The position numbers and the translations under genes were made by a program. The notes below the pieces were generated by a model. That model saw only the letters and a list, made by a program, of their open reading frames with translations, was not told where the DNA came from and made no database searches. Shown one piece after another: positions 4,522 through 50,899 of a stretch of 59,973 nucleotides of DNA; position 1 is the stretch's first letter; each line of letters begins with the position of its first letter. The DNA comes from a virus (taxonomy: Duplodnaviria > Caudoviricetes): IMG/VR virus record IMGVR_UViG_3300017743_000009, positions 1 through 59,973 of that record; one strand, 5' to 3'.

Positions 4522-5347
4522 TAAAGTATTTATCTGTCACGAATCCATAGTTATCATTTGCACTAACACTATCTGTATTTATAGCAAGTGTGCTATTAGA
4601 TGTTGGGTTACCGTTAGCATCTAATCCAGGTGTTATAGTTATTCTAGAAGCAGGAGTAGAAATACTATTAATATTAAATACACCTGGTGCACCTGGGTCA
4701 ACATAAAATTGAGTATTTGCTTTTTTAATAAGACCTTTCTTATCTTCTACAGGACCAAATACATATCCTTTTATATCAAATCTTAAAGTATGAATAAGAG
4801 CTCTTCTTGATTCAAAATTACCTTCATAAGAATCTGAAGTATTTAAGCTTTGAAACACTACAGGTATATCAAAACCAAAATCTAATCCATCTATTAATTT
4901 AAGAGTAGCTGTAAACTCAGGAGTAAAATAAGGTAAAATTTGTTCTAATATTCTTACTCCATCTTCTGCATTTTTTACCATAATAGCTAATTCAAAACCT
5001 ATATTGAATGGAGTTGGTGTTCCAACACTAGACAAATTAAATGATTCATCTCTTTTAGCCTGTACTAAATCTCTCATAGGATTCATTCTACGCTCAGGAT
5101 CATACTGAAATGAAATCATCTCAAATGACATTCTCGGTAATTGAATCTGTATCTGTCTATCTAAATTAGGGTCTACATTTAATCTTTCAATAAATTTCTG
5201 TCTGGGACCATAAGAAACAGGCACACGCAAAGTCTGAATAGCATTACCTGATTCATCCTCTCTATCTATCTCTATGTTATTAAACAGAGTACCAAAGTAA
5301 ACTACATACTTTCTTATAACACCGTTGTAATATTTTTTACCAAACAT
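4514..5347 (-). CDS. gp15: Tail sheath stabiliser / tail terminator
   Basis: FGTLFNNI, VPVSYGPRQKF, LPRMSFE and EQILPYFTP motifs; synteny gp13-14-15-16-17. Confidence 0.95.
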   Translation of the reverse strand: MFGKKYYNGVIRKYVVYFGTLFNNIEIDREDESGNAIQTLRVPVSYGPRQKFIERLNVDPNLDRQIQIQLPRMSFEMISFQYDPERRMNPMRDLVQAKRDESFNLSSVGTPTPFNIGFELAIMVKNAEDGVRILEQILPYFTPEFTATLKLIDGLDFGFDIPVVFQSLNTSDSYEGNFESRRALIHTLRFDIKGYVFGPVEDKKGLIKKANTQFYVDPGAPGVFNINSISTPASRITITPGLDANGNPTSNSTLAINTDSVSANDNYGFVTDKYFNG

Positions 5348-14521: not shown

Positions 14522-14773
14522 TTATCTAAAAGGAGATGTTTTTCTCTTTACGTCCTTTAGTTTTAAAGCTTTTTTTACGTTTATGTTATTTATACTATTT
14601 AAGTCGTCTACTATCTCTCTTAAAACTTGTACCTCAGCGGTAAGTTTTTGATTCTTTTCTGACAAATCTTCAATTATTGTCTTTTGATTTAATACAAATC
14701 GACTCAATACTTTAAGTTGGACCTCTCCAAACTCATCCGTAAGTATTTTATGTTCCCAAAATTTCCATTTCAT
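14522..14773 (-). CDS. Small coiled-coil protein
   Basis: IEDLSEKNQKLTAEVQVLREIVDDL heptads; TAATG coupling to the upstream gene. Confidence 0.6.
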   Translation of the reverse strand: MKWKFWEHKILTDEFGEVQLKVLSRFVLNQKTIIEDLSEKNQKLTAEVQVLREIVDDLNSINNINVKKALKLKDVKRKTSPFR

Positions 14774-18500: not shown

Positions 18501-18902
18501 AGGTAGTAATCTAAATACTTGCTGTTCTGTACCGTCAATAGCAAATTTACCATTCGCTACAGTTATTGTATGTTTAAAGCCTTGAAATGCAGCTTCAGTA
18601 ATAGATAAATTAGGTACTGTAAGATCTGTACTAATAACTATATTATTTACTGTAGCTGTACCATCTACTGTAAGAGCAACGGTTTTAAGATCATCTACAA
18701 AAGATGAAGCATTTACTACTATTGCTTGATTAGCTGTTAATGTCCCTGGGGTCCTTTGACCTCCGATAGGAATATTTGTATTACCTGTTGCACTACCTAC
18801 ATATAAAATACCACCATTAGAAGTAAATGCAAGTTCACCAAATGATATATTTGCAAACGAATCAAGAGTTTGCGATCGTTTTATCTGAATTAAATCGGAC
18901 AT
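15522..18902 (-). CDS. Large fibre/adhesin protein with cupredoxin-like and two PKD-like domains
   Basis: N-terminal IQIKRS...GELAF; HPLKF...YYCGNHSGMG; PKD signatures YDITWGDG...PSHTY and FVNWGDG...LTHTY. Confidence 0.7.
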   Translation of the reverse strand: MSDLIQIKRSQTLDSFANISFGELAFTSNGGILYVGSATGNTNIPIGGQRTPGTLTANQAIVVNASSFVDDLKTVALTVDGTATVNNIVISTDLTVPNLSITEAAFQGFKHTITVANGKFAIDGTEQQVFRLLPGLKYYFDTSDSSNSSHPLKFSETADGTHGSGSEFTTGITHVGTPGSAGSYSIVSLEADAPTRLFYYCGNHSGMGSTIRVHEPQIIAANSTVTTLTGMLHANDVSISNNLTVNGDFILRGSSIQLGDGGDVISLGATVNTSIIPSDNVTYDLGSSTNNYKHVYANQITIASNPVADSQVASKGYVDTQVGGISTVGNTTQIGAPTDGVFANGSGSGNIEGAVTSIANTTSVADAIDSMNEVMFNVYQNTYVRDVSVTCNSGNVGGAPLTSTLTIDVVGNANRYDITWGDGSYTNNTTDATPSHTYTDNTNSPFDIVVAARNTNALGEGNTATFTATDLITLYTSDPSADFDIFNAASGGSEITEANINQVIYLDNETTNANDVVATFFVNWGDGDTSAISNTSVAGGTQGARLTHTYTAGTSTGTDTITLSINSHSTANPTAVPDSSTKTIKIFDTGIAAPEGLSGKSISLTSSSVGSSPRLASGFINNTSEGSFAAGDSVTRYTTSGNIQTSGEANSQVVYDASTGTLSAIVDGSAEGTITFNSSDNTGTDQSLVVVDELDFYNFNNTGGSVSAGSRRYAPGLYSGFRARINKSSLATGSHTYKLSHSTTGNTSVLEFAKDNLTGTPVLNFSGTTVTQNSAGTLAYVSGVPYYTNDASLNVIGALVSNVAGQFYKNDSTPFNIYSGTNIEGDSGSSFSTQTKNYSILPSSTLVSGYPKANTGVGANVSIETFQVAVNGGGRRVEGFSMMMENVNGSSSTLQYANTKVAVYNGNSSGVREDAIPVSDSLGATYDTDGKRLSNFSSTNATPTFANNVDYYVNNAWTGAVTVAGTDEAIQRYGTLAHNVVDYSSGYLPAGPNLNTSRSGVQYFRFAFKRTNVANFNVTLTGTVASFHIAAPGTNIDDTSDSNGWVDASNTYAGAGTPGANTAAGGNGSDGCAFTSGDRIQSSTNYNNNSFTMTLGDQNASTSTNNQILVSVGLSSGQSLTKLEIS

Positions 18903-19120
18903 TAACTTACCTCGCCACCATCAATACCACCTCTAGCAGATGCTACAGAAACAGGTGTAAAAGTATTTGAAGATGAATTATAGGCTAGTATTTCACCATT
19001 AGCAATAGTTTGATAATTAATATTTAACCCTGAAATATCATTTGTTGACGTTTGGTTTTTAATTATCTTAGTTACTATAGGTGTAGAAGTAGTCTGAATT
19101 GTTGCAACTGTATTAGCCAT
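18902..19120 (-). CDS. Small structural adaptor protein
   Basis: NGEILAYNSSSNTF fibre-knob motif; C-terminal IDGGE; translationally coupled on both sides. Confidence 0.6.
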   Translation of the reverse strand: MANTVATIQTTSTPIVTKIIKNQTSTNDISGLNINYQTIANGEILAYNSSSNTFTPVSVASARGGIDGGEVS

Positions 19121-19455
19121 TAGTATGAAATCTCCGGTGTTACGGTTACTTGGCCTTGCAATACTCTATTAATAGTTGAACCACCACCTAAAGAAACTTC
19201 AACATCATACATATAACGACCAGGCGGTATTGCACCTGTAACTGTGTTATTAGCTGATAGAGTTAAAATTCCATTTACTGGATCTGATGCAGATGCACTG
19301 ATTGAATATGATGTATTTGAAGACCAATGTTTACGTAACTTACAGTTTGCAGCATAGCCTGTTAAGTTAAATACTTCTCCATTAGCCTGTGTGACTGTTA
19401 CAGCCAGAGAAAAATCAGTACCTTTATCTATTATAATATTTGCGCGCGTAGCCAT
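19120..19455 (-). CDS. Virion structural protein with a BppU-like/Ig-like fibre attachment domain
   Basis: NIIIDKGTDF...FNLTGY...GRYMYDVEV...RVLQGQVTVTP pattern typical of marine T4-like structural proteins; RBS AGAGG. Confidence 0.65.
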   Translation of the reverse strand: MATRANIIIDKGTDFSLAVTVTQANGEVFNLTGYAANCKLRKHWSSNTSYSISASASDPVNGILTLSANNTVTGAIPPGRYMYDVEVSLGGGSTINRVLQGQVTVTPEISY

Positions 19456-19502
19456 TTACACCTCTATTTTAAGTATATTTAGGCTATTTTAAAACGAGGG
19501 TA

Positions 19503-20342
19503 CTACGCTTCTTCTATTTCTTCACAAAGGTCTTCCCATATACTTCTATCTGGGACAACTGTTGATAGTGTAAATCTTCTAGTTACGGCATGAGCACAAT
19601 GCCAGCTAGCTGTTTCTTGATCTGCAAGTATAGGGGTTGTATATGTTTGTTCACGTTTGCCAAACTTACCTGCAATCTTCTCATCATACTTATTTGGATC
19701 TGAAATTGTATCATAAAAAATACCAGCTCTAGCTACCCAACCTGGCTTATCTTTATATTCAATTATCTCTCCATCATCGTAAGTATAGAAAGAACCACTA
19801 CCTTCTTTATTATAATGTAATAAAATATTATTACCAGGAGCATTACCATTATGATGCCAAGGTATATGTCCCCCAGGCTCATAGAACGCGCATAATGCCA
19901 TAGCTGAACCACCTAACCATTTATGTGATATGTCATACACCATGTCTCTAAACCAATCGTAATCTTTAGTTCGCTCCCAAACTTTTTTACCTGTTACAAA
20001 TGGTTCCAAATTAGGGAAGCCTTTTGTTTCATGATGTAACGGGCCTTTTTCTTTCATAAGATCTTTTTGATAATTTAAATATTCAATTCCAATTGGACTC
20101 ATTTGGCCTGACTTTAATTCATCGTTCATGTTCCAGGGTAGAATATCCCAATGAGGAGCTGCTACATAAGCTTCTTCTTTATTATCTTTTTCTCTTTCCT
20201 TTGGACTTTTAGATTTATATTCTAGATCAATTAATGAGCTCATTAATTCTCGATCATCAAATAATTCATCAACCTTTAACGCTAGATTATCTAATTTTTT
20301 TATAAGTTCTGGATTTCGTATTGTTAGGTCTTGCATCTTCAT
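19503..20342 (-). CDS. 2OG-Fe(II) oxygenase / DSBH-fold enzyme with an HxN...H...R motif
   Basis: FYEPGGHIPWHHN (Y.PGG..WHxN) ... SWHCAH..RRFTLS (distal His and R-x-T/S 2OG-binding motif). Confidence 0.65.
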   Translation of the reverse strand: MKMQDLTIRNPELIKKLDNLALKVDELFDDRELMSSLIDLEYKSKSPKEREKDNKEEAYVAAPHWDILPWNMNDELKSGQMSPIGIEYLNYQKDLMKEKGPLHHETKGFPNLEPFVTGKKVWERTKDYDWFRDMVYDISHKWLGGSAMALCAFYEPGGHIPWHHNGNAPGNNILLHYNKEGSGSFYTYDDGEIIEYKDKPGWVARAGIFYDTISDPNKYDEKIAGKFGKREQTYTTPILADQETASWHCAHAVTRRFTLSTVVPDRSIWEDLCEEIEEA

Positions 20343-21187
20343 ACTGGATTACCTCCTGGACCTGTACCAGGCTGATATTCATCTTCTAAATATAATCCAG
20401 GTGTTTGATTTAATAATCCTCTATTAATAGGATGATGTTTAATAATAGGAGTTAATCCTCCATGAGATCTATTACCCATATAATGATTCCAATTCCATCT
20501 TAACATCTCATGCTTATTATTATTTTCTACTTCTTGTATTTTAAGATCTGGAATTAATTTTTGATGTATCCACCACCAGGTAAATTGATCCCATGCTCGA
20601 TTCTTAAAATAAATTTCAGGATGGTTTTTCCAAAAATCAGGATTAGCATTTATATTTAAATATTCTGTCCACCATAGGTTCATAGCTTTTTGAGCGTTAG
20701 GACGCTTATCATTATTCCACCATAAAAAGAACCCGCCATGATATCTTAAATGTTTATCTACAGCATTATCTCTTATATCTGCTTCACCTTCTTTAGTATA
20801 AATTGCTGTACTTGCTCCAGTATTAGGATCGATAACAGTAAAGGCGCAATCATGATTATCATCTAATAAATCAAAAACTCTTTCTATTTCCTCATCTACT
20901 ATTTCCATATCAGCATCTAAATAGCAAGTCTTTTCAAATGGTGTATGCTGAAGAGCCCATAATTTAGATCTTACACTTATTGGAAAATCTTCACTAACCA
21001 CTTTAACAACTGAATCTAATCTTTCAAAATCTTCTACCCATTCTGGATGGCATGCAACCATAACTTTAGGATCATTATAATAATCTTCTAAACTTTCTAT
21101 ACATTGAATAGCACTATTTTTATAGTGGTTATGCATAGAAGCAACTAATAAAAAACCTTCTTTATGTTTCTGTTCTGTCATAATCAC
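20339..21187 (-). CDS. Glycosyltransferase, GT-A fold (GT8-like)
   Basis: RSKLWALQHTPFEKTCYLDADM (DxD), HGGFFLW, WDQFTWW and terminal IIKHH. The start may be the second Met at 21181. Confidence 0.8.
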   Translation of the reverse strand: MIMTEQKHKEGFLLVASMHNHYKNSAIQCIESLEDYYNDPKVMVACHPEWVEDFERLDSVVKVVSEDFPISVRSKLWALQHTPFEKTCYLDADMEIVDEEIERVFDLLDDNHDCAFTVIDPNTGASTAIYTKEGEADIRDNAVDKHLRYHGGFFLWWNNDKRPNAQKAMNLWWTEYLNINANPDFWKNHPEIYFKNRAWDQFTWWWIHQKLIPDLKIQEVENNNKHEMLRWNWNHYMGNRSHGGLTPIIKHHPINRGLLNQTPGLYLEDEYQPGTGPGGNPV

Positions 21188-21578
21188 TCACTACTGCTGC
21201 ACCATAGACGTATAATTCTGCAAATGTTTTAGCTTTACGAATACGTCTTTTTAACTTTTTATTAGTTGTCTTTTTAATTTCATCGATTTCCATAACTGAT
21301 AATTTTTCAATAAATAGAGCTTCCTGCATTTGTCGTTCTTCATTCTCTTTATGGAATTGTTCTTCAGCTAATTTCTGTTCTCTAAATTGCTTTACGTCCT
21401 CTTCAGACCTTGCAGTAATTTCTTCAATAGAAAATTCTGCTAAAACAGCATCGTAGTTTTCTTTATCTTTGGGATCTATGATAAGCTCTCTACTACCTGT
21501 TTCAGTAATTTCAAGAGCCCTAATTCGTTTTTTTTCTTCTGGGATTTCCCAGAGAGCATTTTTAAATCGGTTTGCCAT
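21162..21578 (-). CDS. Highly charged hypothetical protein (possible fibre chaperone)
   Basis: E/K-rich and helical; RBS GAGG; directly downstream of the 1505-aa repeat protein and overlapping the GT start. Confidence 0.6.
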   Translation of the reverse strand: MANRFKNALWEIPEEKKRIRALEITETGSRELIIDPKDKENYDAVLAEFSIEEITARSEEDVKQFREQKLAEEQFHKENEERQMQEALFIEKLSVMEIDEIKKTTNKKLKRRIRKAKTFAELYVYGAAVVSDYDRTET

Positions 21579-21624
21579 TATATAACCTCACGTTTACATT
21601 ATTATTATTATATGTTCTTTTATC

Positions 21625-21632
21625 TATTTATG
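21625..21632 (-). promoter_or_regulatory. Putative late promoter CATAAATA for the 138-aa/GT/oxygenase cassette
   Basis: NATAAATA box overlapping the TAA of the 1505-aa gene. Confidence 0.55.
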
Positions 21633-24600
21633 CAACTCTTAGCCATAATTTTATAGTAGAGTTATTTGAGGCTGTACCTTGAATAGTATCACCTGCAAAT
21701 TGACCCGTAAACTGAGATGAATAAGTAGATGTAAATTGCGGACCTGTTATTAATCTCGCGAATTGGTCTCCATTATATGATGGCCCTGGAGTCGTTCTAG
21801 CATACCCTACACTATAATTATCTCCTACTACTAACCTTGCAAATTGTCCTCTTGTATATTGAGGGCCAGGTGTAGTTCTAGAATACTGAGAGGTGTATTG
21901 AGGTCCTACTACAAGTCTAGCAAACTGGCCTCTAGTGTATTGTGGTCCAGGTGTAGTTCTAGCATAATTAACAGTGTAGTTTGGTCCAGTCACCAGTCTT
22001 GCATATTGACCGTCTGAGTAATTAGGGCCAGGTGTTGTTCTAGAGTAGCCAACACTATAATTAGGACCCGGTGTTATTCTAGCATATGCTCCATCTGAAT
22101 AATTAGGTCCAGGTGTTGTTCTGGCATAGTTAACTGTATATTGTGGTCCTGGTCTAGCTCTTGTATACTGACCGTCACTGTATGCTGGCCCTGGCGTCGA
22201 CCTAGCATAGTTAACTGTATATTGAGGACCTACTACAAGTCTTGCATATTGTGCAGAATAAATTCTTGTAAACTGTCCTGTATACTGCGCAGTAAACTGT
22301 CTTGTAAAAGATCTACCATAATTTACTGAATATATTCTAGCATATTGTCCTGTATATTGAGCTGTATATTGTCTATTAAATGCCCTTCCATAATTGGCGG
22401 AATATATTCTTGTATATTGTCCTGTATATTGGGCAGTAAATTGTCTGTTAAAGGATCTAGAATATGAAGCTGAAAAAATCCTAGTAAATTGCCTACTATA
22501 TTGTCCGGAATATATTCTAGCAAATGATCTTCCGTATCCTGCTGAGAATATTCTAGTAAATTGTCTGGCATATTGGCCAGCATAACTTCTTGCAAATGCT
22601 CTTCCATAATTAGCGGAATATATTCTGGCATATTGACCTGTGTATTGAGCTGTATATTGTCTATTGAATGATCTACCATAACCAGCTGAAAAAATCCTTG
22701 TAAATTGTCTAGCGTATTGGCCGTTATAAACTCTACCGAACGCTCTTCCGTACCCTGCTGAGTATATTCTTGTAAATTGTCTAGCGTACTGGCCGTTATA
22801 AACTCTACCAAAAGCCCTTCCGTATCCTGCTGAGTATATTCTTGTAAATTGTCTTGCATATTGACCATAATAGACCCTACCAAAAGACCTACCATACCCG
22901 GCTGAAAAGATTCTAGTAAACTGTCTTGCATATTGACCATAGTATACTCTACCAAAAGCTCTTCCGTATCCAGCTGAAAAGATTCTAGTAAATTGTCTTG
23001 CGTATTGACCATAGTATACTCTACCATAGTTAACTGCATAGTTAGGTCCTGGTCTTGATCTACCATAGTTACCATAATAGATTCTACCATAGTTAACAGT
23101 ATAGCCTACAGCATAGTTAGGACCTGGTCTAGATCTTCCATAGTTACCATAATAGATTCTACCAAACGATCTATTGTATTGGACACCATATGCTGGGCCC
23201 GGTCTTGCTCTATTATATGAACCATAGTACACTCTTCCAAACGATCTATTGTATTGGACACCATATGCTGGTCCAGGTCTAGCTCTATTATATGAACCAT
23301 AGTATACTCTTCCATAGTTTACAGTATAACTTGAAGAATAGTTTGGTCCTGGGCGTGATCTAGTAAAATTTCCTGAGTAAATATTAGCACCACCGGCCTG
23401 TCTATAGTAAGATGGTAATCTAGTAAACCCTTTATACTGACCACCTATAGGAGGGAAGCCACCAGCAGATGCGTAAATATTAGCAGAACGCGTGTAGATA
23501 GTGCCTCTATAATATTGACTGCCGCCGTCTTGGTCCGGGGGTGGAAAGAATGTTGGAGGTCCAAAATAAGGTTCTACTGGAGCACCATAACCGGTTCCAT
23601 ATCCACCTTCAAGCCTATCAGAATTATAATTAAAGTCAAATGCTAATCGTGAAAAATTAGCTCCAGCATAACTACCATAGTAAACTCTTCCAAAAGATCT
23701 CGAATAACTTACACCGTAAGCTGGACCTGGTCTTGATCTACCATAGTTACCATAATATACTCTACCATAGTTAACAGTGTATCCTACGGCATAGTTAGGG
23801 CCTGGTCTAGATCTTCCATAGTTACCATAATAGATTCTACCATAGTTAACAGTATACCCTACAGCATAGTTAGGGCCTGGTCTTGCTCTATTATATGAAC
23901 CGTAGTATATTCTTCCAAACGATCTGCTATACTGTACACCGTAAGCAGGTCCTGGTCTAGCTCTATTATATGAGCCAGTGTATACTCTACCATAATTGAC
24001 TGCGTACGCAGGTCCTGGTCTTGATCTTGTATATTGTCCATCACTATAATTAGGACCTGGTGTTATTCTGGCATAGTTAACTGTGTAATTAGGACCCGGT
24101 CTTGATCTTGTATACGACCCGTCCGAATAATTAGGCCCCGGAGTTGTTCTAGCGTAGTTAACTGTGTAGTTGGGACCAGGTCTTGATCTTGTATATTGTC
24201 CATCACTATAATTAGGTCCCGGAGTTGTTCTAGCATAGTTAACAGTATAATTAGGTCCTGGTCTTGATCTTGTGTATTGCCCATCACTGTAATTAGGACC
24301 AGGTGTAGTTCTAGCGTAGTTTACAGTATAATTAGGACCCGGTCTTGATCTTGTGTATGACCCATCTGAGTAATTAGGTCCAGGTGTAGTTCTTGCATAG
24401 TTAACTGTGTAGTTAGGCCCTGTAATTAATCTTGCAAATTGACCTCTAGTATACTGAGGACCTGGTGTTATTCTGGCATAGTTAACTGTATAGTTAGGAC
24501 CAGGTCTAGCTCTTGTATATGACCCGTCTGAATAATTAGGACCTGGAGTTGATCTTGCATAGTTAACAGTGTAATTAGGTCCAGGTGTTATTCTAGCATA

Positions 24601-26145
24601 GTTACCATCTGAGTAAGCTGGTCCTGGAGTTGCTCTTGAATATCCTGCAGAGTAATTAGGACCGACTACTAATCTGGCAAATTGACCTCTTGTGTATTGA
24701 GGTCCTGGAGTTGTTCTTGCATAGTTAACTGTATAGTTAGGTCCTGTAATTAATCTAGCAAATTGTCCTCTTGTGTATTGAGGTCCTGGAGTTATTCTTG
24801 CATAGTTGGCAGTATATTGGCTACCTACTACTAGTCTTGCAAATTGACCTCTTGTGTATTGAGGTCCTGGAGTAGTTCTAGAATAGCCTGATGTATATTG
24901 TCTAGTAAATTGTCTACCATATCCTGCAGAGAAAATTCTTGTAAATTGTCTAGCGTATTGGCCAGCATAACTTCTTGCAAACTGTCTTCCATATCCTGCT
25001 GAGAATATTCTAGTAAACTGTCTAGAATAATCGCCAGTAAATATTCTTGCAAATGCTCTTGTATATTGTGCAGAGAATATTCTAGTAAACTGTCTTGCGT
25101 AGTCACCGGTAAATTGTCTATTAAAAGCTCTTCCATAAGCTGCAGAGTATATTCTAGTAAACTGGCCTGTGTATTGAGAAGTATATTGCCTTGTAAACTG
25201 TCTACCGTATTGAGCAGAATATATCCTGGTGAACTGTCCAGTATATTGAGATGTAAATTGTCTATTAAAAGACCTAGTATATTGAGCTGTAAATGACCTA
25301 GCAAACTGTCTTGTATATTGAGCTGAGAATTGTCTAGTAAACTGTCTACTAAAGTTTCCAGTAAACTGATTAGAGTATTGTTGAGAAGTATTATCAGCTA
25401 CCTGATCGATTAGACTATCACTAACTTGTAACCATGTACCAGTTCCTGGAGCACTTACTTGTAGTTTATAAGTACCAACACCAGTAGCTACAATTCTATT
25501 TCTTAATCTTTGAGTTAATGATTTAATTTCAGCAGTAGACATCTGCTTAATAAGAGATCCATCTAACTTAACAGTAGGTATATTAGTATAACTTATTCCA
25601 TCATCTGTTTTACGATATAAATTATATGTTTGATTTGTTCCTGCATTATGAGTAATTGTATCAGTAACGGTCGCTTTGGTAGCCCAAGTCCCTCCAGAAG
25701 GTGCTGCGGTACCAAAATAATACTGCCCCGTAGCATAATTGGAAGTATTAGCTATTTTATCTAAGGCATATTTAATAATTGAATTATTTAAATCTGTATC
25801 TGTTTGTTCTTTTACTGAAGAACTAGAATAGCCTAACGGTCTTACTAAACCTGATTCAGATATAGCAGTAACATTTTGATAGAAGGTAGTTGTTACAGTA
25901 TTAGTAGATCCGGTTGCAGGATGAGTACCAATAGATTCTGTTCTTCTTGTATCAACGAAAGATCCTATAGAAGTTCCTGTAGTAATATTAAGATCACCTG
26001 TTACTACATTACTAGAGGCAAAATCTTCAAGTACAATATTAGTGACATAATCCATTTCTGCATTAGTCATTTCCTGCAGACCTGAGAAGTTAGTTGAGTT
26101 TACACTCGAACCACTACTAACTTTTATTTTTAATGGATTACTCAA
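21628..26145 (-). CDS. Giant aromatic/Arg tetrapeptide-repeat protein (predicted beta-hairpin fibre), 1505 aa, TTG start
   Basis: About 255-aa globular N-region, then about 1230 aa of [FY]xxx and [FY]xRxxPGPx repeats around a unique centre; ends KLWLRVA; paralogous to 26185..28653. Confidence 0.85.
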   Translation of the reverse strand: MSNPLKIKVSSGSSVNSTNFSGLQEMTNAEMDYVTNIVLEDFASSNVVTGDLNITTGTSIGSFVDTRRTESIGTHPATGSTNTVTTTFYQNVTAISESGLVRPLGYSSSSVKEQTDTDLNNSIIKYALDKIANTSNYATGQYYFGTAAPSGGTWATKATVTDTITHNAGTNQTYNLYRKTDDGISYTNIPTVKLDGSLIKQMSTAEIKSLTQRLRNRIVATGVGTYKLQVSAPGTGTWLQVSDSLIDQVADNTSQQYSNQFTGNFSRQFTRQFSAQYTRQFARSFTAQYTRSFNRQFTSQYTGQFTRIYSAQYGRQFTRQYTSQYTGQFTRIYSAAYGRAFNRQFTGDYARQFTRIFSAQYTRAFARIFTGDYSRQFTRIFSAGYGRQFARSYAGQYARQFTRIFSAGYGRQFTRQYTSGYSRTTPGPQYTRGQFARLVVGSQYTANYARITPGPQYTRGQFARLITGPNYTVNYARTTPGPQYTRGQFARLVVGPNYSAGYSRATPGPAYSDGNYARITPGPNYTVNYARSTPGPNYSDGSYTRARPGPNYTVNYARITPGPQYTRGQFARLITGPNYTVNYARTTPGPNYSDGSYTRSRPGPNYTVNYARTTPGPNYSDGQYTRSRPGPNYTVNYARTTPGPNYSDGQYTRSRPGPNYTVNYARTTPGPNYSDGSYTRSRPGPNYTVNYARITPGPNYSDGQYTRSRPGPAYAVNYGRVYTGSYNRARPGPAYGVQYSRSFGRIYYGSYNRARPGPNYAVGYTVNYGRIYYGNYGRSRPGPNYAVGYTVNYGRVYYGNYGRSRPGPAYGVSYSRSFGRVYYGSYAGANFSRLAFDFNYNSDRLEGGYGTGYGAPVEPYFGPPTFFPPPDQDGGSQYYRGTIYTRSANIYASAGGFPPIGGQYKGFTRLPSYYRQAGGANIYSGNFTRSRPGPNYSSSYTVNYGRVYYGSYNRARPGPAYGVQYNRSFGRVYYGSYNRARPGPAYGVQYNRSFGRIYYGNYGRSRPGPNYAVGYTVNYGRIYYGNYGRSRPGPNYAVNYGRVYYGQYARQFTRIFSAGYGRAFGRVYYGQYARQFTRIFSAGYGRSFGRVYYGQYARQFTRIYSAGYGRAFGRVYNGQYARQFTRIYSAGYGRAFGRVYNGQYARQFTRIFSAGYGRSFNRQYTAQYTGQYARIYSANYGRAFARSYAGQYARQFTRIFSAGYGRSFARIYSGQYSRQFTRIFSASYSRSFNRQFTAQYTGQYTRIYSANYGRAFNRQYTAQYTGQYARIYSVNYGRSFTRQFTAQYTGQFTRIYSAQYARLVVGPQYTVNYARSTPGPAYSDGQYTRARPGPQYTVNYARTTPGPNYSDGAYARITPGPNYSVGYSRTTPGPNYSDGQYARLVTGPNYTVNYARTTPGPQYTRGQFARLVVGPQYTSQYSRTTPGPQYTRGQFARLVVGDNYSVGYARTTPGPSYNGDQFARLITGPQFTSTYSSQFTGQFAGDTIQGTASNNSTIKLWLRVA
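21688..25377 (-). repeat. Mirror-ordered coding repeat array (24-aa, 27-aa and 25-aa super-repeats)
   Basis: Blocks: A 25377-24886, B 24885-23995, C 23994-23671, centre, C' 23367-23029, A' 23028-22249, B' 22248-21688. Confidence 0.9.
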
Positions 26146-26173
26146 AGTTCACTTTTCCTTAATCTTGTAATGT

Positions 26174-26189
26174 TATTTATTTATTTATG
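26174..26189 (-). promoter_or_regulatory. Overlapping tandem late-promoter boxes (CATAAATAAATAAATA)
   Basis: Three overlapping NATAAATA matches starting at the stop of the 822-aa gene, upstream of the 1505-aa gene. Confidence 0.6.
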
Positions 26190-28653
26190 CAACTCTTAAC
26201 CATAAGGTCTTAGTAGTAGTTGTAAAACTTCCTGTTACTGTGGCACCAGCATATTGTCTTTCTCTTGACCCTGCGTAATTACTAGTATACTGACCATCAG
26301 TATAGTTGGGCCCTACAATCTCACTAGTATATTGCCCTGTGAACTGTCCACGAGTAAACTGACCTGTATATTGTGGACCGGTTACAATTCTTGTGAATTG
26401 TATAGCGTATTGAGTGCCTCTTGAAAATGCTACTGAGTAATCAGCAGAAAAATTAGCAGTAAATTGTCCCGTGTATTGGGGTCCTGGTGTTGATCTAGTA
26501 TATTGACCATCACTGTAATTTGGACCAGGTGTAGTTCTAGCATATTGCGGACCATTATATTGAGGTCCAGGAGTAGATCTTGAATACTGTGCTCTTATAA
26601 AGTTACCTTGATATTGTGGTCCATCAAACTGTCTTACATAAGTACCATAGCTTCTTGATCCATCATATGTAGATGTATATTGCGGACCATTATATTGAGG
26701 TCCAGGTGTTGATCTATCATAATTAGTTGTATACGAAGCACGAGTATATTGCGGTCCTGGAGTTGCTCTTGCATAAGATGGCCCAGGTGTGGTTCTTGCA
26801 TATTGACCGTCTGAGTAATTAGGTCCAGGTGTTGTTCTATCATAATTAGCAGTATATTGACCATAAAATGTAACTGAATAACCAGGTCCAAATGAATAAC
26901 CTGTGTATGCTGCTCTAATATACTGACGAGAATAAACAACTTGATATGGTGGACTGCCTACATCATTTGATCTAAAATATTGTTGAAGCCTTGAAAAACC
27001 TTTGTATATACCTGATACAGGAGGTAACCCTCCAAGATCACCTGAATATACATTAGAGCTACGGGTGTAAACAAACCCTCTATAATATTGTGTACCATCT
27101 CTATCGGCTGGTGGAAATTGTGTAGGAGGTCCAAAATAGGGCTCTTCTCGCGCATAAGGTTGACCATACCCATTAGTCTCTCCATGGTCAGCATTGTAAC
27201 CAAAAGCTAAACCTGATCTAGCAAATTGAGCTTCATAACCACGATTAAAACTTCCTGTAAATGATCTATCATAAGTTACAGTTATACCTACCCTTGTAAA
27301 TTGCCTACCATACTGAGCAGAATAAATTCTGGTAAACTGTCTTGCATAATCAGCTGAGTAAATTCTTGCATAGTTAGCTGAGTAAATTCTAGTATATTGA
27401 GATCTTATAAATGATCTTCCATATGTTCCAGCATATACTCTTTGGAATTGTCTGGTAAATTGATTGCCTCTGCTATATGTTCCAGCATATGTTTTCGTAT
27501 AAGCTGAGCCATCAAACTGTCTAGTAAATTGGCTATTGTATGGTCTACCGTATTGTGCTGAAAATGTTCTTGCAAACTGCCTTTGATATTGCGCAGTAAA
27601 AACTCTATTAAACTGTCTTGCGTATTGTGCTGAATATATTCTAGTATATTGACCACGAGAAAATTGTGATCCTATAACAGCCCTTGAAAATGATCTTAAA
27701 AATTCTCTAGTAAAATTTCTTGCATACTGTCCAGTATATATTCTAGTAAATTGATTAGCAAATTGTCTGTTAAATTGACCTCTAGTGTATTGAGCTGAAA
27801 ACTGTCTACCAAATTGTCTTGAAAATTGTCTAGAGTAGTTAGCTGAATAAGTACCTGTATATTGTATACTTGAAATTACAGGATTTCTATCAGTAGCAGT
27901 TCCTCTAGCTACCCATGTACCTGTTCCTGGAGCAGATGTTTGAAATTTATAGGTACCAATACCAGTTGCAATAATTCTATTTCTTAGTCTTGAGGTTAAA
28001 TTTTCTAATTCATTATCAGTTTGAACTTTAAGAGTACCATTTACTTGCTTAAGTAACTTTATATCTGATGGTGAGTTATCATAAGAAGTCTTTCTCCATA
28101 GCTTGTAAGTGGTCTTAGAGCTATCATCATTAGCATTATTAGTTATCTCATCATAGAAATTATCTTGTGCTACCCATGTACCAGCAATAGAAGGAGCTGA
28201 TTCACTTATGTAATAAGTCCCTGTACCTGCTGCAGTAGAATTTGCTTTTGCTATATCTGCTAAAGCAAGATCCATTACTACATTTAATTCAGCATCTGAT
28301 ACTACTCTAATATGCCCAGGGTTACCCGTACCGTCATGAGTAATTAAAGGGTGTATTGAACTCTCTGAAGCCGTTGAATTGTTTTGTTTAAATGTATAAG
28401 TGGTTGTTGAAGTAGATCCAGTATAAGGATGTGTTCCAGTTTCGGAAGTAGCAAAATTATCCTCAAATACTCCTACAGAAGTACCTAGTGAATCTATATT
28501 TAGATCACCAGTATTGTCTCCAGCTCCAGACTCAGAAGCGTATAAAGTTAATAATTTTTTTGATAGAAAATCAAGCTCTGCATTAGTAGTTACTTGAACG
28601 CCATTATTGTAAATACCGTTAGCGTGGGTTCGCATTTTGAGAGGATTTGGCAT
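26185..28653 (-). CDS. Shorter paralogue of the aromatic/Arg repeat hairpin fibre, 822 aa
   Basis: M.NPLK start; shared RLRNRI.ATG.GTYK.Q.SAPGTGTW; same central EPYFGPPT.FPP.D.DG..YYRG domain; ends TLWLRVA. Confidence 0.85.
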   Translation of the reverse strand: MPNPLKMRTHANGIYNNGVQVTTNAELDFLSKKLLTLYASESGAGDNTGDLNIDSLGTSVGVFEDNFATSETGTHPYTGSTSTTTYTFKQNNSTASESSIHPLITHDGTGNPGHIRVVSDAELNVVMDLALADIAKANSTAAGTGTYYISESAPSIAGTWVAQDNFYDEITNNANDDSSKTTYKLWRKTSYDNSPSDIKLLKQVNGTLKVQTDNELENLTSRLRNRIIATGIGTYKFQTSAPGTGTWVARGTATDRNPVISSIQYTGTYSANYSRQFSRQFGRQFSAQYTRGQFNRQFANQFTRIYTGQYARNFTREFLRSFSRAVIGSQFSRGQYTRIYSAQYARQFNRVFTAQYQRQFARTFSAQYGRPYNSQFTRQFDGSAYTKTYAGTYSRGNQFTRQFQRVYAGTYGRSFIRSQYTRIYSANYARIYSADYARQFTRIYSAQYGRQFTRVGITVTYDRSFTGSFNRGYEAQFARSGLAFGYNADHGETNGYGQPYAREEPYFGPPTQFPPADRDGTQYYRGFVYTRSSNVYSGDLGGLPPVSGIYKGFSRLQQYFRSNDVGSPPYQVVYSRQYIRAAYTGYSFGPGYSVTFYGQYTANYDRTTPGPNYSDGQYARTTPGPSYARATPGPQYTRASYTTNYDRSTPGPQYNGPQYTSTYDGSRSYGTYVRQFDGPQYQGNFIRAQYSRSTPGPQYNGPQYARTTPGPNYSDGQYTRSTPGPQYTGQFTANFSADYSVAFSRGTQYAIQFTRIVTGPQYTGQFTRGQFTGQYTSEIVGPNYTDGQYTSNYAGSRERQYAGATVTGSFTTTTKTLWLRVA

Positions 28654-28669
28654 AATCTAACCCTCCCCT

Positions 28670-31633
28670 CTACGCCGGCCAAGCAACCGATCCGTTAGCG
28701 TAATAAACCCTAAATGCATTGCCTCCTTCATCTTTAAGATCGCTATGAACACTTAAATCGCCTACTACGTTAGCTGATGAACTCATTGTTGCAGCTCCAG
28801 TAACACCTAAAGTACTTGATAGAGTTGCTGCGCCTCCTACTGCTAATGTTCCGTCTGCATCGATGCCAGAAGAAGTAATTGCTGTATTTACCGAACTAGT
28901 TCCTACAGTAATTTTTGTTGTTGATAAGTTGACGTTAGCGCCAATGTTTAATGTACTTGATATGTTTGCAATACCTGTAACAGAAGCACCACTTGTTGCA
29001 GTTAATAGTCCTGAGAAGTTACCTGTATTAGCTGTAATTACAAATCGTTTAGACGTTGTACCAAGTGTTTGGCCTACAGTATTAGATTTAGGAATAATTT
29101 GTGAACCAACTGCTATTGAAACTATATTAGCTGTATTAGCAAATAATTCGTATCGTTTTAAATTTGTTCCTAAAGGTACTCCATTAGCGCCTGGTATTAA
29201 TCCAACGGTTGTATTACCAACCGGTGCATATACAAATAAATTTTCAGTGCCTGAACCATTACCAATAGTAGTAGTACCATCTAAGGTTGACTCAGCTGAT
29301 ACTGATAAAGTTGTCATTGATGCTACATTCAATGATAAAGCTTGATTAGAAGATAAAGATGTTGAACCTTGAACTTCTAAATCACCAACAATAGTTACAT
29401 CATCATTAAATGTAGTATTTGGTGTAGCTGTTATTCCAGTATCTGTAATATATAATTCGCCTGATACTAAATTAGCTGTAGCACCAGTATGAACTATTGC
29501 TGACTTTAAAGTACCAAAAGTCATTGAACCTGTAATATCTGCATTACCACCTACGGTAATTTTACCACCTGATTCCATTGTGGTTGTAGCATTTACAAAA
29601 CCTGTTACTGTTGTGTTTCCTGCTGCTAAAGTTTTACTGAATATAGAATTGTCTGCTACTGTTATTGAATCTTGGAACGTAGCATTACTTTGAACTTCTA
29701 ATCTATTATTAAGATCTAGAATACCAGTTACATTTAATCCACCGCTTACATTTAATGTACTTGATACGTTAGCTATACCAGTAACTGTTAAACCTTTCTT
29801 AAGAGTTGATAATCCATTTGCAGTAAATGTATTACTTGTAGCTAAAGCACCTGTAAATGTTCCAGTATTAGATCCTGCTACTGCTCCAGTTACTCCTAAC
29901 TGACCAGAAAGAGATCCTCCTACTGCTTGTATATTTCCATCGGCATTTATATTACCGCTATCATCTATAACTACATTAGTAGATGCGTCACCAACAGTTA
30001 TTTGCCCGGCGTTTAATTCTACATTACCTACAACTACATTTGAGGATACTATAGTATGTCCTGCTATATCTGTATTACTTCCACTTAAAGTAGAGACTCC
30101 ACCAACAGTTAAAGTACCACCTGTTGATATAGTTGTTGATGTTAATTTTGAATTTGATGCATTGTTACCTACTGCTATGCTATTATTAGATAACTTAACT
30201 TTAGTATTTGCTGAACCAACATGAATAGCAACTGAAGCATTTGCTGTACCTGTTACTATTAAATTACTTTTAGCTCTTAATAATCCACCTACATTTGCTG
30301 CTGTAGTAAATACTGCATTTCCTGCGACAGTTAAAGTGTTACTAAATGATACAGAATTAGTAACTGCTAAGGTATTACTTAGAGTAGTTGCCCCAGTAAC
30401 ACCTACTGTATTACTGAAAGTGGCTGTATTTGTTACCGCTAAAGTATTACTTAAAGTAGCTGCACCTGTAACTGTGATAGTATTACTAAATGTAGCTGTA
30501 TTAGTTACAGCAATAGTATTACTAAATGTTCCTGCTCCTACTACATCAAGTGTATTACTAAAATCGCCTGTACCTGTAACTAGTAATGTTTTGCTTACGT
30601 TTATATCTTCTGCATTAACATCCCATCTTGCATTTGTAGCACCAAGAACTTTAGAGTTGGATGTAGGTATTATATTAGTATCAACTTTACCATTAATAGA
30701 AATAGTATCTGCAGATGCATTACCTAAGTCTACATCAGAAGCAAACGTTGCATTCCCTGTTACTGATAGTGTGTTTGATACACTTACTGTATTACTATTA
30801 AGGTTCCATCTAGCGTCTGTTAGACCAAGGGACAATGCATTAGATACAGGATTTAAACCAGTATCTGCTTCAGAGTTAAACGAAACAGTATCAGAGTTTG
30901 CACTACCTAATATTACATTAGCATTAAATAAAGATTCATCTGAATTAACTGTTAATAAGTTTCCAGATAAAGTAAGATTTGCTTCTGTGCCGTCTCCATT
31001 TAAATCTAAGACAGTTGTAGATCCATCAGCTTTAACTGTTATGTCATTAGCGGTTAAAGTAATATCGTTATAATCAGCTGTTAGAGCAGTACCGTCCATA
31101 TCAACGGTTGCTGAATTAATATCAAAAGTTGTTCCAGTTACATGAGTAGCAGTAGAGTTAAGAGAAGTATTAGAAGACGTACTGTTAATATGTACATCAC
31201 CTTTAATTTGAAGTAAGCTGTTATTTACAAATACGTTTGTTGTTTGTATATCAGTATAAGCACCTTTTATTCTTACCGTATTAGTAGTAGACTGAGAAGC
31301 AACATTAATTGTATCGCCTAGTATATTAGTATTAGATGTTATAGAAAGAGTATTAGATGCTTGAACATTACCACCTCTAAGACCATCTAAAGCAGCTACA
31401 GTATTAGCTTGAATAATACCACCAGTTGAACTAACCCAGGCAGATGTATCTTGATTATAAACGTTAGAAGTAATAACAACGTTACCAGAAGTAGAACCAC
31501 CAACTGTATTCTGTTGGGCAGTAACCACAACTTCTGACATATCAAATACTATTTGGTTGGTTCTATCTACCCATGCTCCAAAAGTATCTGTCTGAGTTGC
31601 TACATTAGCGGATTTGTATTTACGTTCAGCCAT
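28670..31633 (-). CDS. Long tail-fibre/whisker-like protein (987 aa)
   Basis: N-terminal TDTFGAWVDRTNQ anchor motif; beta-helix-like T/S/N-rich repeats; P....LG....RW fibre motifs; C-terminal VYYANGSVAWP. Confidence 0.7.
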   Translation of the reverse strand: MAERKYKSANVATQTDTFGAWVDRTNQIVFDMSEVVVTAQQNTVGGSTSGNVVITSNVYNQDTSAWVSSTGGIIQANTVAALDGLRGGNVQASNTLSITSNTNILGDTINVASQSTTNTVRIKGAYTDIQTTNVFVNNSLLQIKGDVHINSTSSNTSLNSTATHVTGTTFDINSATVDMDGTALTADYNDITLTANDITVKADGSTTVLDLNGDGTEANLTLSGNLLTVNSDESLFNANVILGSANSDTVSFNSEADTGLNPVSNALSLGLTDARWNLNSNTVSVSNTLSVTGNATFASDVDLGNASADTISINGKVDTNIIPTSNSKVLGATNARWDVNAEDINVSKTLLVTGTGDFSNTLDVVGAGTFSNTIAVTNTATFSNTITVTGAATLSNTLAVTNTATFSNTVGVTGATTLSNTLAVTNSVSFSNTLTVAGNAVFTTAANVGGLLRAKSNLIVTGTANASVAIHVGSANTKVKLSNNSIAVGNNASNSKLTSTTISTGGTLTVGGVSTLSGSNTDIAGHTIVSSNVVVGNVELNAGQITVGDASTNVVIDDSGNINADGNIQAVGGSLSGQLGVTGAVAGSNTGTFTGALATSNTFTANGLSTLKKGLTVTGIANVSSTLNVSGGLNVTGILDLNNRLEVQSNATFQDSITVADNSIFSKTLAAGNTTVTGFVNATTTMESGGKITVGGNADITGSMTFGTLKSAIVHTGATANLVSGELYITDTGITATPNTTFNDDVTIVGDLEVQGSTSLSSNQALSLNVASMTTLSVSAESTLDGTTTIGNGSGTENLFVYAPVGNTTVGLIPGANGVPLGTNLKRYELFANTANIVSIAVGSQIIPKSNTVGQTLGTTSKRFVITANTGNFSGLLTATSGASVTGIANISSTLNIGANVNLSTTKITVGTSSVNTAITSSGIDADGTLAVGGAATLSSTLGVTGAATMSSSANVVGDLSVHSDLKDEGGNAFRVYYANGSVAWPA
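30308..30560 (-). repeat. Seven tandem 12-aa repeats SNT(L/I/V)xVxxxx(T/S/V)(F/L)
   Basis: SNTLDVVGAGTF SNTIAVTNTATF SNTITVTGAATL SNTLAVTNTATF SNTVGVTGATTL SNTLAVTNSVSF SNTLTVAGNAVF. Confidence 0.85.
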
Positions 31634-50891: not shown

Positions 50892-50899
50892 TATAAATA
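50892..50899 (+). promoter_or_regulatory. Consensus T4 late promoter TATAAATA, 5 nt upstream of the gp4 ATG
   Basis: Exact TATAAATA in the 22-bp divergent gap between gp48 and gp4. Confidence 0.8.

Follow-up and report, generated by a model that had tools for sequence, protein, structure and literature searches.

The closest described counterparts of the locus reported here are the collagen lysyl hydroxylase (LH)/glycosyltransferase (GT) systems, mimivirus L230 and R699 among them, as presented in the available text of two reports (PMC9546862, PMC5802723), and the GTs of mycobacteriophages, which decorate the phages' own capsid and tail-tube subunits at their C-termini (Freeman et al. 2023, as summarised in PMC12619734). 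The locus lies on IMG/VR virus record IMGVR_UViG_3300017743_000009, a sequence of 59,973 bp (estimated completeness 34%) that was analysed over its whole length and is called the window below. Two genes for long repeat proteins, rep2 and rep1, are followed by three small genes that code for a charged protein of 138 aa (p138), a GT of the GT-A fold and a double-stranded beta-helix (DSBH) protein resembling 2-oxoglutarate (2OG) oxygenases. From the observed gene linkage, operon structure, folds and conserved active-site-like residues, these genes may form a dedicated fibre-tailoring module of uncultured T4-like myoviruses, a reading to which we attach roughly even weight.

The module resembles the collagen LH/GT systems in that a viral DSBH-type enzyme and a GT-A enzyme are tied to a long fibre of short-period repeats, the two enzymes being fused in L230 and LH3 and encoded by adjacent genes in the phage module. 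It differs from them in several ways: the phage repeats lack the G-X-Y pattern and conserved Lys or Pro, the phage DSBH carries H-x-N and shows no sequence similarity to LH domains, the phage GT resembles GT8/GT24-type enzymes by fold only, and the present virus is a tailed phage with a bacterial host. T4 fibres depend on the dedicated chaperones gp57A and gp38. Like such T4-type helpers, the module consists of small accessory genes beside fibre genes in a probable late operon, with an LtfC-like gene after the trio; unlike them, neither p138 nor GT nor DSBH matches a fibre chaperone in PHROG or Pfam, and two of the three carry enzyme-type active-site motifs. In the mycobacteriophage system, phage-encoded GTs likewise act on the phage's own structural proteins, the targets there being capsid and tail tube rather than a repeat fibre, in other phage and host groups; the summary in PMC12619734 mentions no DSBH partner or p138-like protein. 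A literature search (supplements not covered) found no description of a fibre–p138–GT–DSBH module, and no natural H-x-N variant of the 2OG-oxygenase active site was found described. The module falls outside the GT8 and 2OG-oxygenase families, and outside Pro/Lys hydroxylation–glycosylation systems, as these are defined. Virus-encoded tailoring of the virus's own fibre is the known kind to which it is compared, and what is new are three unannotated protein families and the H-x-N variant of the DSBH.

Gene order was followed across IMG/VR contigs from three seeds, namely the GT, the DSBH and the N-terminal domain of the fibre, the best 80 relatives being kept out of at least 558 for the DSBH seed and out of 141 for the fibre seed. 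The GT seed gave 75 loci, or 77 sources with the window and the deposited phage C48C1. The DSBH gene adjoins GT in 73 of these (the misses are two loci ending at that point and two remote GT-only loci), p138 lies directly 5′ of GT in 71/77, and a fibre-family gene is found upstream in 62/77, the other 15 being 13 loci with less than 1 kb of upstream sequence and the two remote ones. Among 74 new loci from the DSBH seed, GT was present upstream in 73, p138 in 68 and the fibre N-domain in 60; upstream contig sequence was too short in the misses, except in locus L127, where a 691-aa repeat ORF (open reading frame) with 16% Tyr lies outside the reach of the fibre models. The fibre seed added 66 loci, of which 56 carry the full trio downstream and ten are cut off by the end of the contig, so that the trio is complete in all 56 informative loci and no locus had room for it and lacked it.

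After deduplication to 119 distinct DSBH sequences, and counting only those with enough upstream sequence, GT accompanies 115 of 116, p138 114 of 115 and the fibre gene 97 of 99, the exceptions being L127 and L219, and the order fibre–p138–GT–DSBH is kept down to 25–30% protein identity. The co-occurrence of the three small genes with repeat-fibre genes, which the first-pass annotation had proposed as a neighbourhood test, is therefore found well beyond the window. Phage C48C1, the single match when the DSBH, GT and rep2 proteins were compared with deposited phages by tblastn, shows the same order: a 3347-aa Y-x-R/G repeat protein ending in ...TLYVRVA, a 153-aa charged protein, and GT-like, DSBH-like and LtfC-like proteins. 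By these counts, and by the ATGA overlap described below, a hydroxylase-like gene and a GT gene are coupled to the gene of their putative substrate.

Table 1. Features of the fibre locus in the window.
Feature	Position	Strand	Basis
rep2, fibre-family paralogue, 822 aa	26185..28653	−	ORF and translation; N-domain hidden Markov model (HMM) E 8.4e-87; C-terminal motif
rep1, fibre-family protein, 1505 aa, TTG start as listed	21628..26145	−	N-domain HMM E 2.1e-108
ATAAATA late-promoter-like box, overlaps rep1 stop	21625..21631	−	motif search
p138, charged, 138 aa	21162..21578	−	ORF; homologues directly 5′ of GT
GT-A fold glycosyltransferase, 282 aa	20339..21187	−	alignment, model, fold search
DSBH / 2OG-oxygenase-like protein, 279 aa	19503..20342	−	alignment, model, fold search
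LtfC-like protein, 111 aa	19120..19455	−	phrog_3304 'L-shaped tail fiber protein assembly'

The ORF list and the PHROGs of the flanking genes agree with the earlier placement of the five genes on the minus strand, inside the structural module, and the overlapping starts and stops claimed for the three small genes can be read directly from the sequence. The p138 stop (21162–21164) overlaps the GT start by 26 nt if GT begins at GTG 21187, or by 20 nt if it begins at ATG 21181, the likely start, where homologues begin; the GT stop and the DSBH start share an ATGA at 20339–20342. No terminator-like site was found on the minus strand within 18800–28900.

The first-pass annotation also placed a late-promoter box at 21625. 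An ATAAATA core is indeed located there, within CATAAATA at 21625–21632(−) and about 46 nt before the p138 ATG; the site is one mismatch from the T4 late-promoter consensus TATAAATA and is called late-promoter-like here. (A T4-type late promoter is taken here to be TATAAATA preceding a late gene, some 10 nt 5′ of where the transcript starts.) ATAAATA is rarer in the window than expected (22 matches against 46.1), as is TATAAATA (3 against 16), and 14 of the 16 minus-strand copies of ATAAATA lie no more than 100 nt upstream of a minus-strand ORF start. The motif therefore seems to behave like a late promoter element, and its depletion and siting appear to fit T4-type late promoters and selection against stray copies. 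Almost all coding-strand copies of the late-promoter-like motif are found just 5′ of gene starts, for example at 4576–4583(−), 14587–14594(−) and 50892–50899(+), and rep1 is preceded by three overlapping copies (26174–26188(−)).

The first-pass assignment of a DxD GT-A glycosyltransferase is borne out by alignment, model and fold search. The GT protein has no significant Pfam or PHROG match, and 38 metagenomic cluster relatives were found, 34 of which were aligned with it (alignment A2; P0040, P0071, P0073 and P0074 left out). The motif Y89-x-D91-A-D93 is invariant in all 35 aligned sequences, as are H150-G-G, W199-D-Q and H251, the last of which would sit where GT8 enzymes carry the C-terminal His of their Mn site. 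The AF2 model is confident (pLDDT 91.2, pTM 0.90) and has the GT-A fold: Foldseek returned at least 500 PDB matches at E ≤ 0.001, and all of the top matches listed are GT-A enzymes, the best being glycogenin-1 (E 6.1e-9), the UGGT catalytic domain, LARGE1, XXYLT1 and alpha-1,3-GalT, at a TM of about 0.5. Structurally, the protein is nearest to the retaining GT8, GT24 and GT6 enzymes.

Glycogenin glucosylates a protein tyrosine. The phage GT is like glycogenin and other GT8 enzymes in that these are its best structural matches (E 6e-9) with the DxD aligned, a sequence-profile comparison with glycogenin (E 0.019) placing YLDADM onto the glycogenin DxD, and the fibre encoded next to it is rich in the residue that glycogenin targets (10–16% Tyr). 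It is unlike them in sequence: the window GT has no PF01501 (Glyco_transf_8) match at E ≤ 0.1, which places it outside GT8 by sequence, and only one of 35 family members matches that family, weakly (E 0.019), whereas 20 of the 35 give a weak match to PF00535 (Glycos_transf_2; best E 4e-4).

The DSBH protein likewise has no significant match in Pfam or PHROG. A first search found 34 cluster relatives, and alignments were built from the window and 32 of these (A1; P0005 and P0033 left out), from the window, nine of the 34 and 15 locus sequences (A3), and from the window and 55 of 150 listed representatives (A4). Among 1.84 billion proteins the family has 750 representatives of 50%-identity clusters at E ≤ 1e-3, 128 of them at E ≤ 1e-30, and at least 558 viral-contig stretches encode it; 185,579 species genomes yielded five relatives, all on contigs of metagenome-assembled genomes (MAGs) or bins. 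Judged from these sequences, the family seems essentially viral. Members of the window's clade are longer (270–299 aa), with extra N-terminal and internal segments. In the ESM Atlas the protein groups only with unnamed viral clusters, and weak leads below the 0.9 level point to 2OG-FeII_Oxy_3 (0.87) and Asp_Arg_Hydrox (a viral PF05118 cluster, 0.86).

Its AF2 model (pLDDT 92.8) contains the DSBH core, with eight strands in double-stranded beta-helix order. The Foldseek matches listed for the PDB are mostly 2OG oxygenases (PolD, ALKBH3, PHD2, bacterial P4H, AspH, AlkB), together with small cupins; among viral models (BFVD), one family member (E 1.5e-16) is followed mainly by 2OG oxygenases of cyanophages and giant viruses. 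Some cupins and a few unrelated viral proteins also occur in these lists, and TMq is 0.17–0.35 over PDB and BFVD, the E values in BFVD resembling those in the PDB. An invariant motif, W-H-x-N ... D ... W ... H ... R-x-T, runs through the family, and in the window protein H163-x-N165 replaces the H-x-D/E of oxygenases. Every sequence compared has this Asn, both the 51 distinct ones from the loci and the 145 that represent 50%-identity clusters; the distal His is kept in 141/141 aligned sequences, R256 in 140/141, D198 in 143/145 and W202 in 145/145. In the model, one His closes strand II, the other opens strand VII and the Arg opens strand VIII, positions that we take to match those of PHD/AlkB-type enzymes; R256-x-T258, which begins the last strand 8 residues past the distal His, is a candidate for the basic R-x-S/T element with which 2OG oxygenases bind the 2OG C5 carboxylate. 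A three-His site completed by H176 was considered and dropped, H176 not being conserved in distant members. The idea that invariant D198 might serve as a relocated metal ligand was also considered and set aside.

AlkB, ALKBH2 and ALKBH3 among the fold matches, and the DNA-glycosylating phage GTs cited in the PMC12619734 summary, would suit a DNA hypermodification pair, in which the DSBH oxidises a base in the manner of TET/JBP or AlkB-type enzymes and the GT glycosylates it, as in base J or glucosyl-hydroxymethylcytosine. This is extremely improbable: the genes sit in a tail-fibre operon and go with a fibre gene rather than with replication or nucleotide genes, no TET/JBP enzyme is among the fold matches listed, and the DSBH has no H-x-D.

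No Pfam match was found in rep1 or rep2. The two proteins have in common an N-terminal domain of about 265 aa, long aromatic arrays of period 4 and a C-terminal ...LWLRVA. In rep2, the period-4 aromatic repeats surround a central non-repeat domain and the C-terminus reads ...TLWLRVA; rep1 has long period-4 repeats (x-Ar-x-R/G/A/S) and ends in ...AGDTIQ...KLWLRVA. In rep1, where the aromatic fraction is 0.18, an aromatic residue is followed by another at +4 with a frequency of 0.60; for rep2 this frequency is 0.48. Lys makes up 0.9–1.8% of the two proteins. At the DNA level the repeats correspond to tandem arrays of 24 to 243 nt. A central non-repeat segment is common to rep1 (~23300–23700) and rep2 (~26950–27250) on the minus strand (...PYFGPPT-FPP-D-DG-QYYRG...YTRS...GG-PP--G-YKGF-RL...), and the repeat types flanking it stand in roughly mirror-image order, which may fit the earlier idea of a hairpin. 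ORFs of up to 255 aa in alternative frames within the repeat genes (22323–23090(−), 24831–25304(−), 26634–26939(−), 22141–22329(+) and others) are low-complexity by-products, not genes.

Cassette-linked fibres vary in length between 317 and 3347 aa (alignment A5 covers 25 of the 36 distinct short ones), and what they conserve is the N-domain, the period-4 unit and a C-terminal end of ...(A-G-D-T-I-Q)...LW(L/I/V)(R/K)(T/V)A. Across the family the conserved repeat is a 4-residue aromatic unit, Y-x-G/R-x, mostly Y-x-G-x in distant clades, where Thr reaches 15–17%, Gly 12–17% and Tyr ~11%. The longest of them, the 3347-aa fibre of C48C1 (L001:1412-11455, P0001), holds several non-repeat inserted domains, and about 70 of its residues are duplicated exactly in tandem, either genuinely or through an artefact of assembly.

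The first-pass annotation had drawn attention to regularly spaced (T/R)PGP motifs in the window fibres, and these are present, with 35 copies in rep1 (spacings of 13, 14, 25 and 27 residues) and seven in rep2. It had further proposed that these prolines, or the Arg/Asn residues, are hydroxylated by the DSBH and that the hydroxyl so formed then receives an O-linked sugar from the GT, on the pattern of collagen, extensin or Skp1. The regular spacing would suit such a mechanism, as would the prolyl hydroxylases PHD2 and P4H among the Foldseek matches, the long DSBH form (270–299 aa) in the clade with PGP fibres, which is a correlation at clade level only, and the viral precedent of the mimivirus L230 lysyl hydroxylase/glucosyltransferase acting on collagen, as far as the available text describes it. 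The family as a whole does not bear the proposal out. Three or more [TR]PGP occur in just eight of 87 distinct cassette-linked fibre homologues, all eight close to the window; median Arg is 2.6%, Pro is ~2% in distant fibres and Lys is low in the two of the window, and no hydroxylatable Pro or Lys is conserved in the repeat unit, although GT and DSBH are kept with all of these fibres. The DSBH has H-x-N, not H-x-D, and where a canonical P4H-type enzyme (PF13640) is found, in loci L220 and L061, it is an additional gene. Hydroxylation of Pro or Arg is therefore not the conserved job of the conserved enzymes, and we regard this mechanism as very unlikely; PGP hydroxylation could be a clade-specific use. 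As the fibres conserve neither Pro nor Arg, Tyr, Thr/Ser or the conserved termini are, as far as composition and conservation can tell, the likelier acceptors.

No Pfam or PHROG match was found for p138, which is charged, largely helical by composition and, in an alignment of 30 of ~50 distinct sequences (A6), ends in a conserved K-x-L-K-R-x-I-R-K-A-K. In two contigs it is fused to the GT: a single 561-aa ORF (L195:11257-12942(+), identical in L198) runs from a p138 domain, through ~165 aa in the middle that have no Pfam match, to a GT domain whose DxD reads D-C-D. Since the two are fused there, p138 appears to be a partner or adaptor acting with the GT. In L051, L173, L178 and L072 the same fusion region is split over two overlapping frames, which could reflect a real frameshift, a programmed shift or a sequencing error. 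A complex of the L026 fibre with its cognate p138 was predicted as a stand-in for the much longer fibres of the window and scored 0.35 (runs of 0.35, 0.04 and 0.53), the best of three controls scoring 0.00. The mark used for such scores is reached by 58 of 80 solved complexes and by two of 110 mismatched pairs, and just seven of those 80, together with both passing mismatches, reach it with a score of 0.60 or less. Agreement between runs covers at least 0% of contacts, and partner pLDDT is at least 72. The earlier label of a chaperone for p138 thus has a weak basis in the predicted complex; the fusion instead suggests a partner of the GT.

The predicted contact would also suit a reading in which none of the three proteins is a catalyst and all serve in assembly or as minor parts of the virion, as folding chaperones or attachment parts for an aromatic fibre prone to aggregate, with the GT-A and DSBH folds retained as scaffolds for binding. 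The loss of the facial-triad carboxylate in the DSBH, the LtfC-like 'tail fiber assembly' gene directly after the trio and the dependence of T4 fibres on chaperones are all in line with this. Set against it, residues of catalytic type are strictly kept, both in the GT (D91, D93, H150, H251) and, across representatives of 50%-identity clusters, in the DSBH (H163, N165, D198, H248, R256), and further bona fide enzymes enter the same slot of the cassette. We consider a purely non-catalytic role unlikely.

These further enzymes were seen among the genes neighbouring the trio. A canonical 2OG-FeII_Oxy_3 protein (PF13640, P4H-type) lies between GT and DSBH in L220 (5347-5973; 48.8 bits, cut-off 27) and after DSBH in L061 (11573-12181; 53.5 bits, cut-off 27), and L127 (4996-6425) has a GT25 and a methyltransferase between fibre and p138. 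A further 37 of 115 distinct neighbouring ORFs were scanned (A8) and include two radical SAM/SPASM proteins, one GT25, one cupin and one methyltransferase, as well as unrelated genes such as DNA ligase and PNKP-type phosphatases. Judged from the starts of their sequences, the radical SAM/SPASM genes appear to belong to L101 and L110. Two further ORFs are inserted in some loci: one of 436–445 aa with no Pfam match between fibre and p138 (L014:8150-9484, L016, L064:8173-9480), and one of 381 aa with no match between GT and DSBH (L062, L063, L065, L066, L068).

Taken as a fibre-tailoring module, the locus would work as follows. The substrate would be the fibre family, with its ~265-aa N-domain, an aromatic-x-Gly/Arg-x repeat of variable length that is rich in Tyr, Gly, Thr and Ser, and a conserved C-terminus. 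Three genes, probably late and translationally coupled, follow the fibre gene: p138, as a helical charged adaptor, would work with the GT and may hold the fibre; the GT, as a retaining-type GT-A enzyme, would put a sugar on the fibre protein; and the DSBH, with its H-x-N...H...R, would carry out a second step, either a 2OG-type oxidation at an atypical metal site or another metal-dependent reaction. Glycosylation of the fibre is the likely part of this scheme, while the order of the steps and their chemistry, any hydroxylation included, are inferred. A more specific version would make the H-x-N DSBH a new, phage-restricted class of two-His metalloenzyme which, with a glycogenin-like retaining GT and p138, modifies the tyrosines of a beta-fibre built on a 4-residue Tyr-Gly/Arg unit, perhaps by O-glycosylating them, alone or together with oxidation of the ring or beta-carbon or with cross-linking; in that full form it is unlikely.

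Several observations weigh against reading the locus as a fibre-tailoring module. The Asp/Glu ligand of the facial triad is missing from the DSBH in all 145 representatives, and the geometry of the site in the model (H163, N165, D198, H248, R256) is putative. The PDB fold matches of the DSBH are weak (E 6e-4 to 5e-3, TMq 0.17–0.29), none of 56 diverse members matches any 2OG-oxygenase Pfam family at E ≤ 1, and a PDB sequence-profile search with the family gave chance-level matches only. The predicted contact between fibre and p138 is weakly supported, its three runs disagreeing. We infer the fibre as substrate from gene order alone, its modification being a prediction, and the loci that define this order are not independent, since many contigs are near-identical and motif seeds bias towards relatives. 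One locus, L219 (3824-6336(+)), has a DSBH homologue (E 6.6e-43) placed two genes downstream of the one for the Gp23 major capsid protein (464.8 bits), GT, p138 and fibre genes all being absent from the vicinity; it is the sole clear case outside the module, and in the three-sided scan the only one of the kind that the first-pass annotation had named as refuting, GT or oxygenase homologues occurring apart from repeat proteins. Finally, GT8-type genes in the host-recognition clusters of pelagimyophages and cyanomyophages are read as modifiers of host lipopolysaccharide (LPS) in the available text of PMC7029224.

The first-pass call of a 2OG-Fe(II) oxygenase thus stands in part. The DSBH fold is weakly supported, by the model and Foldseek; the H-x-N and the 0/56 in Pfam speak against the rest, and with neither a triad carboxylate nor a 2OG Pfam match, any hydroxylase activity is therefore putative. 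According to the available text of PMC10947486 and PMC13168262, two His ligands are enough for AspH to be an active 2OG hydroxylase, and by analogy the loss of the carboxylate alone would not exclude catalysis by the DSBH. The two proteins have in common the DSBH fold, two His and no Asp/Glu at the H-x-D position, and AspH is among the fold matches. They differ in that sequence homology is not detectable, an invariant Asn is the substituting residue in the phage protein, and the latter has no TPR domain and no EGF-like substrate.

The LPS reading of such GT8-type genes has a direct counterpart here: the host envelope (LPS O-chain, capsule or S-layer) would be the target of the enzymes, which could thereby block superinfection or unmask a receptor and would be mere residents of a hypervariable host-recognition cluster. 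Modification of the O-chain was proposed for GT8-type genes lying among tail-fibre genes (Zaragoza-Solas et al. 2020, PMC7029224, available text), GT25 ('LPS biosynthesis') genes stand beside the cassette in some loci, and the tail sheath of the window is nearest to those of Proteobacteria phages, including HTVC008M. Such a role is nevertheless unlikely, given the fixed gene order and the near-obligate tie to one fibre family across 119 distinct DSBH sequences, the translational coupling and late-promoter-like box that would put expression with the structural genes, and the near absence of cellular homologues of the DSBH and p138 families, unlike borrowed LPS genes.

Most of the window is a minus-strand structural operon of a T4-like myovirus. 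The cassette is flanked by genes for tail sheath, large terminase, baseplate wedge and hub and by several tail-fibre PHROGs, a structural module of T4 type. The tail sheath (382–2457(−)) is nearest to those of Stenotrophomonas phage DLP_6 (56%), Pelagibacter phage HTVC008M (49%) and Sinorhizobium phiM12-like phages (48%); its relatives also include rhizobial and Caulobacter T4-like phages, and cyanophages are not the nearest. No psbA (PF00124) was found in the record, a fragment with the estimated completeness given above. With the sheath nearest to Proteobacteria phages and psbA absent from the fragment, the virus is therefore not called a cyanophage, and a cyanobacterial host is probably not the right one, although the related phage C48C1 is filed under Kyanoviridae in its GenBank record. 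A blastn search with 19000–22000 found no match among 50,697 phage records. The LtfC-like gene lies directly after the trio in the window and close relatives, and 2–8 kb downstream in distant relatives. Upstream of rep2, a 987-aa protein (28670–31633(−)) represents another type of fibre (phrog_25747 'tail fiber protein', E 3e-6), with many short S-N-T-(L/I)-x-V-T-G-like repeats.

Tail fibres set host range, and how they are built and varied in large uncultured aquatic myoviruses is largely unknown. If the fibre-tailoring reading is true, a widespread fibre family would be matured by its own enzymes, the GTs of host-recognition clusters would act on the virion and not on host LPS, and a large phage-restricted family would supply a natural H-x-N variant of the 2OG-oxygenase active site. 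Should the Tyr-directed version also be true, the module would be the first case in which enzymes tailor a phage tail fibre after translation, and also the first system of Tyr-directed glycosylation from a virus; the fibre coat would gain variety from lineage to lineage through the added genes (P4H-type oxygenase, GT25, methyltransferase, radical SAM). If the three proteins are purely assembly factors, they still represent three new phage protein families with a clear genomic signature. A short fibre homologue of ~330 aa together with the three small genes offers a tractable co-expression system for phage protein glycosylation.

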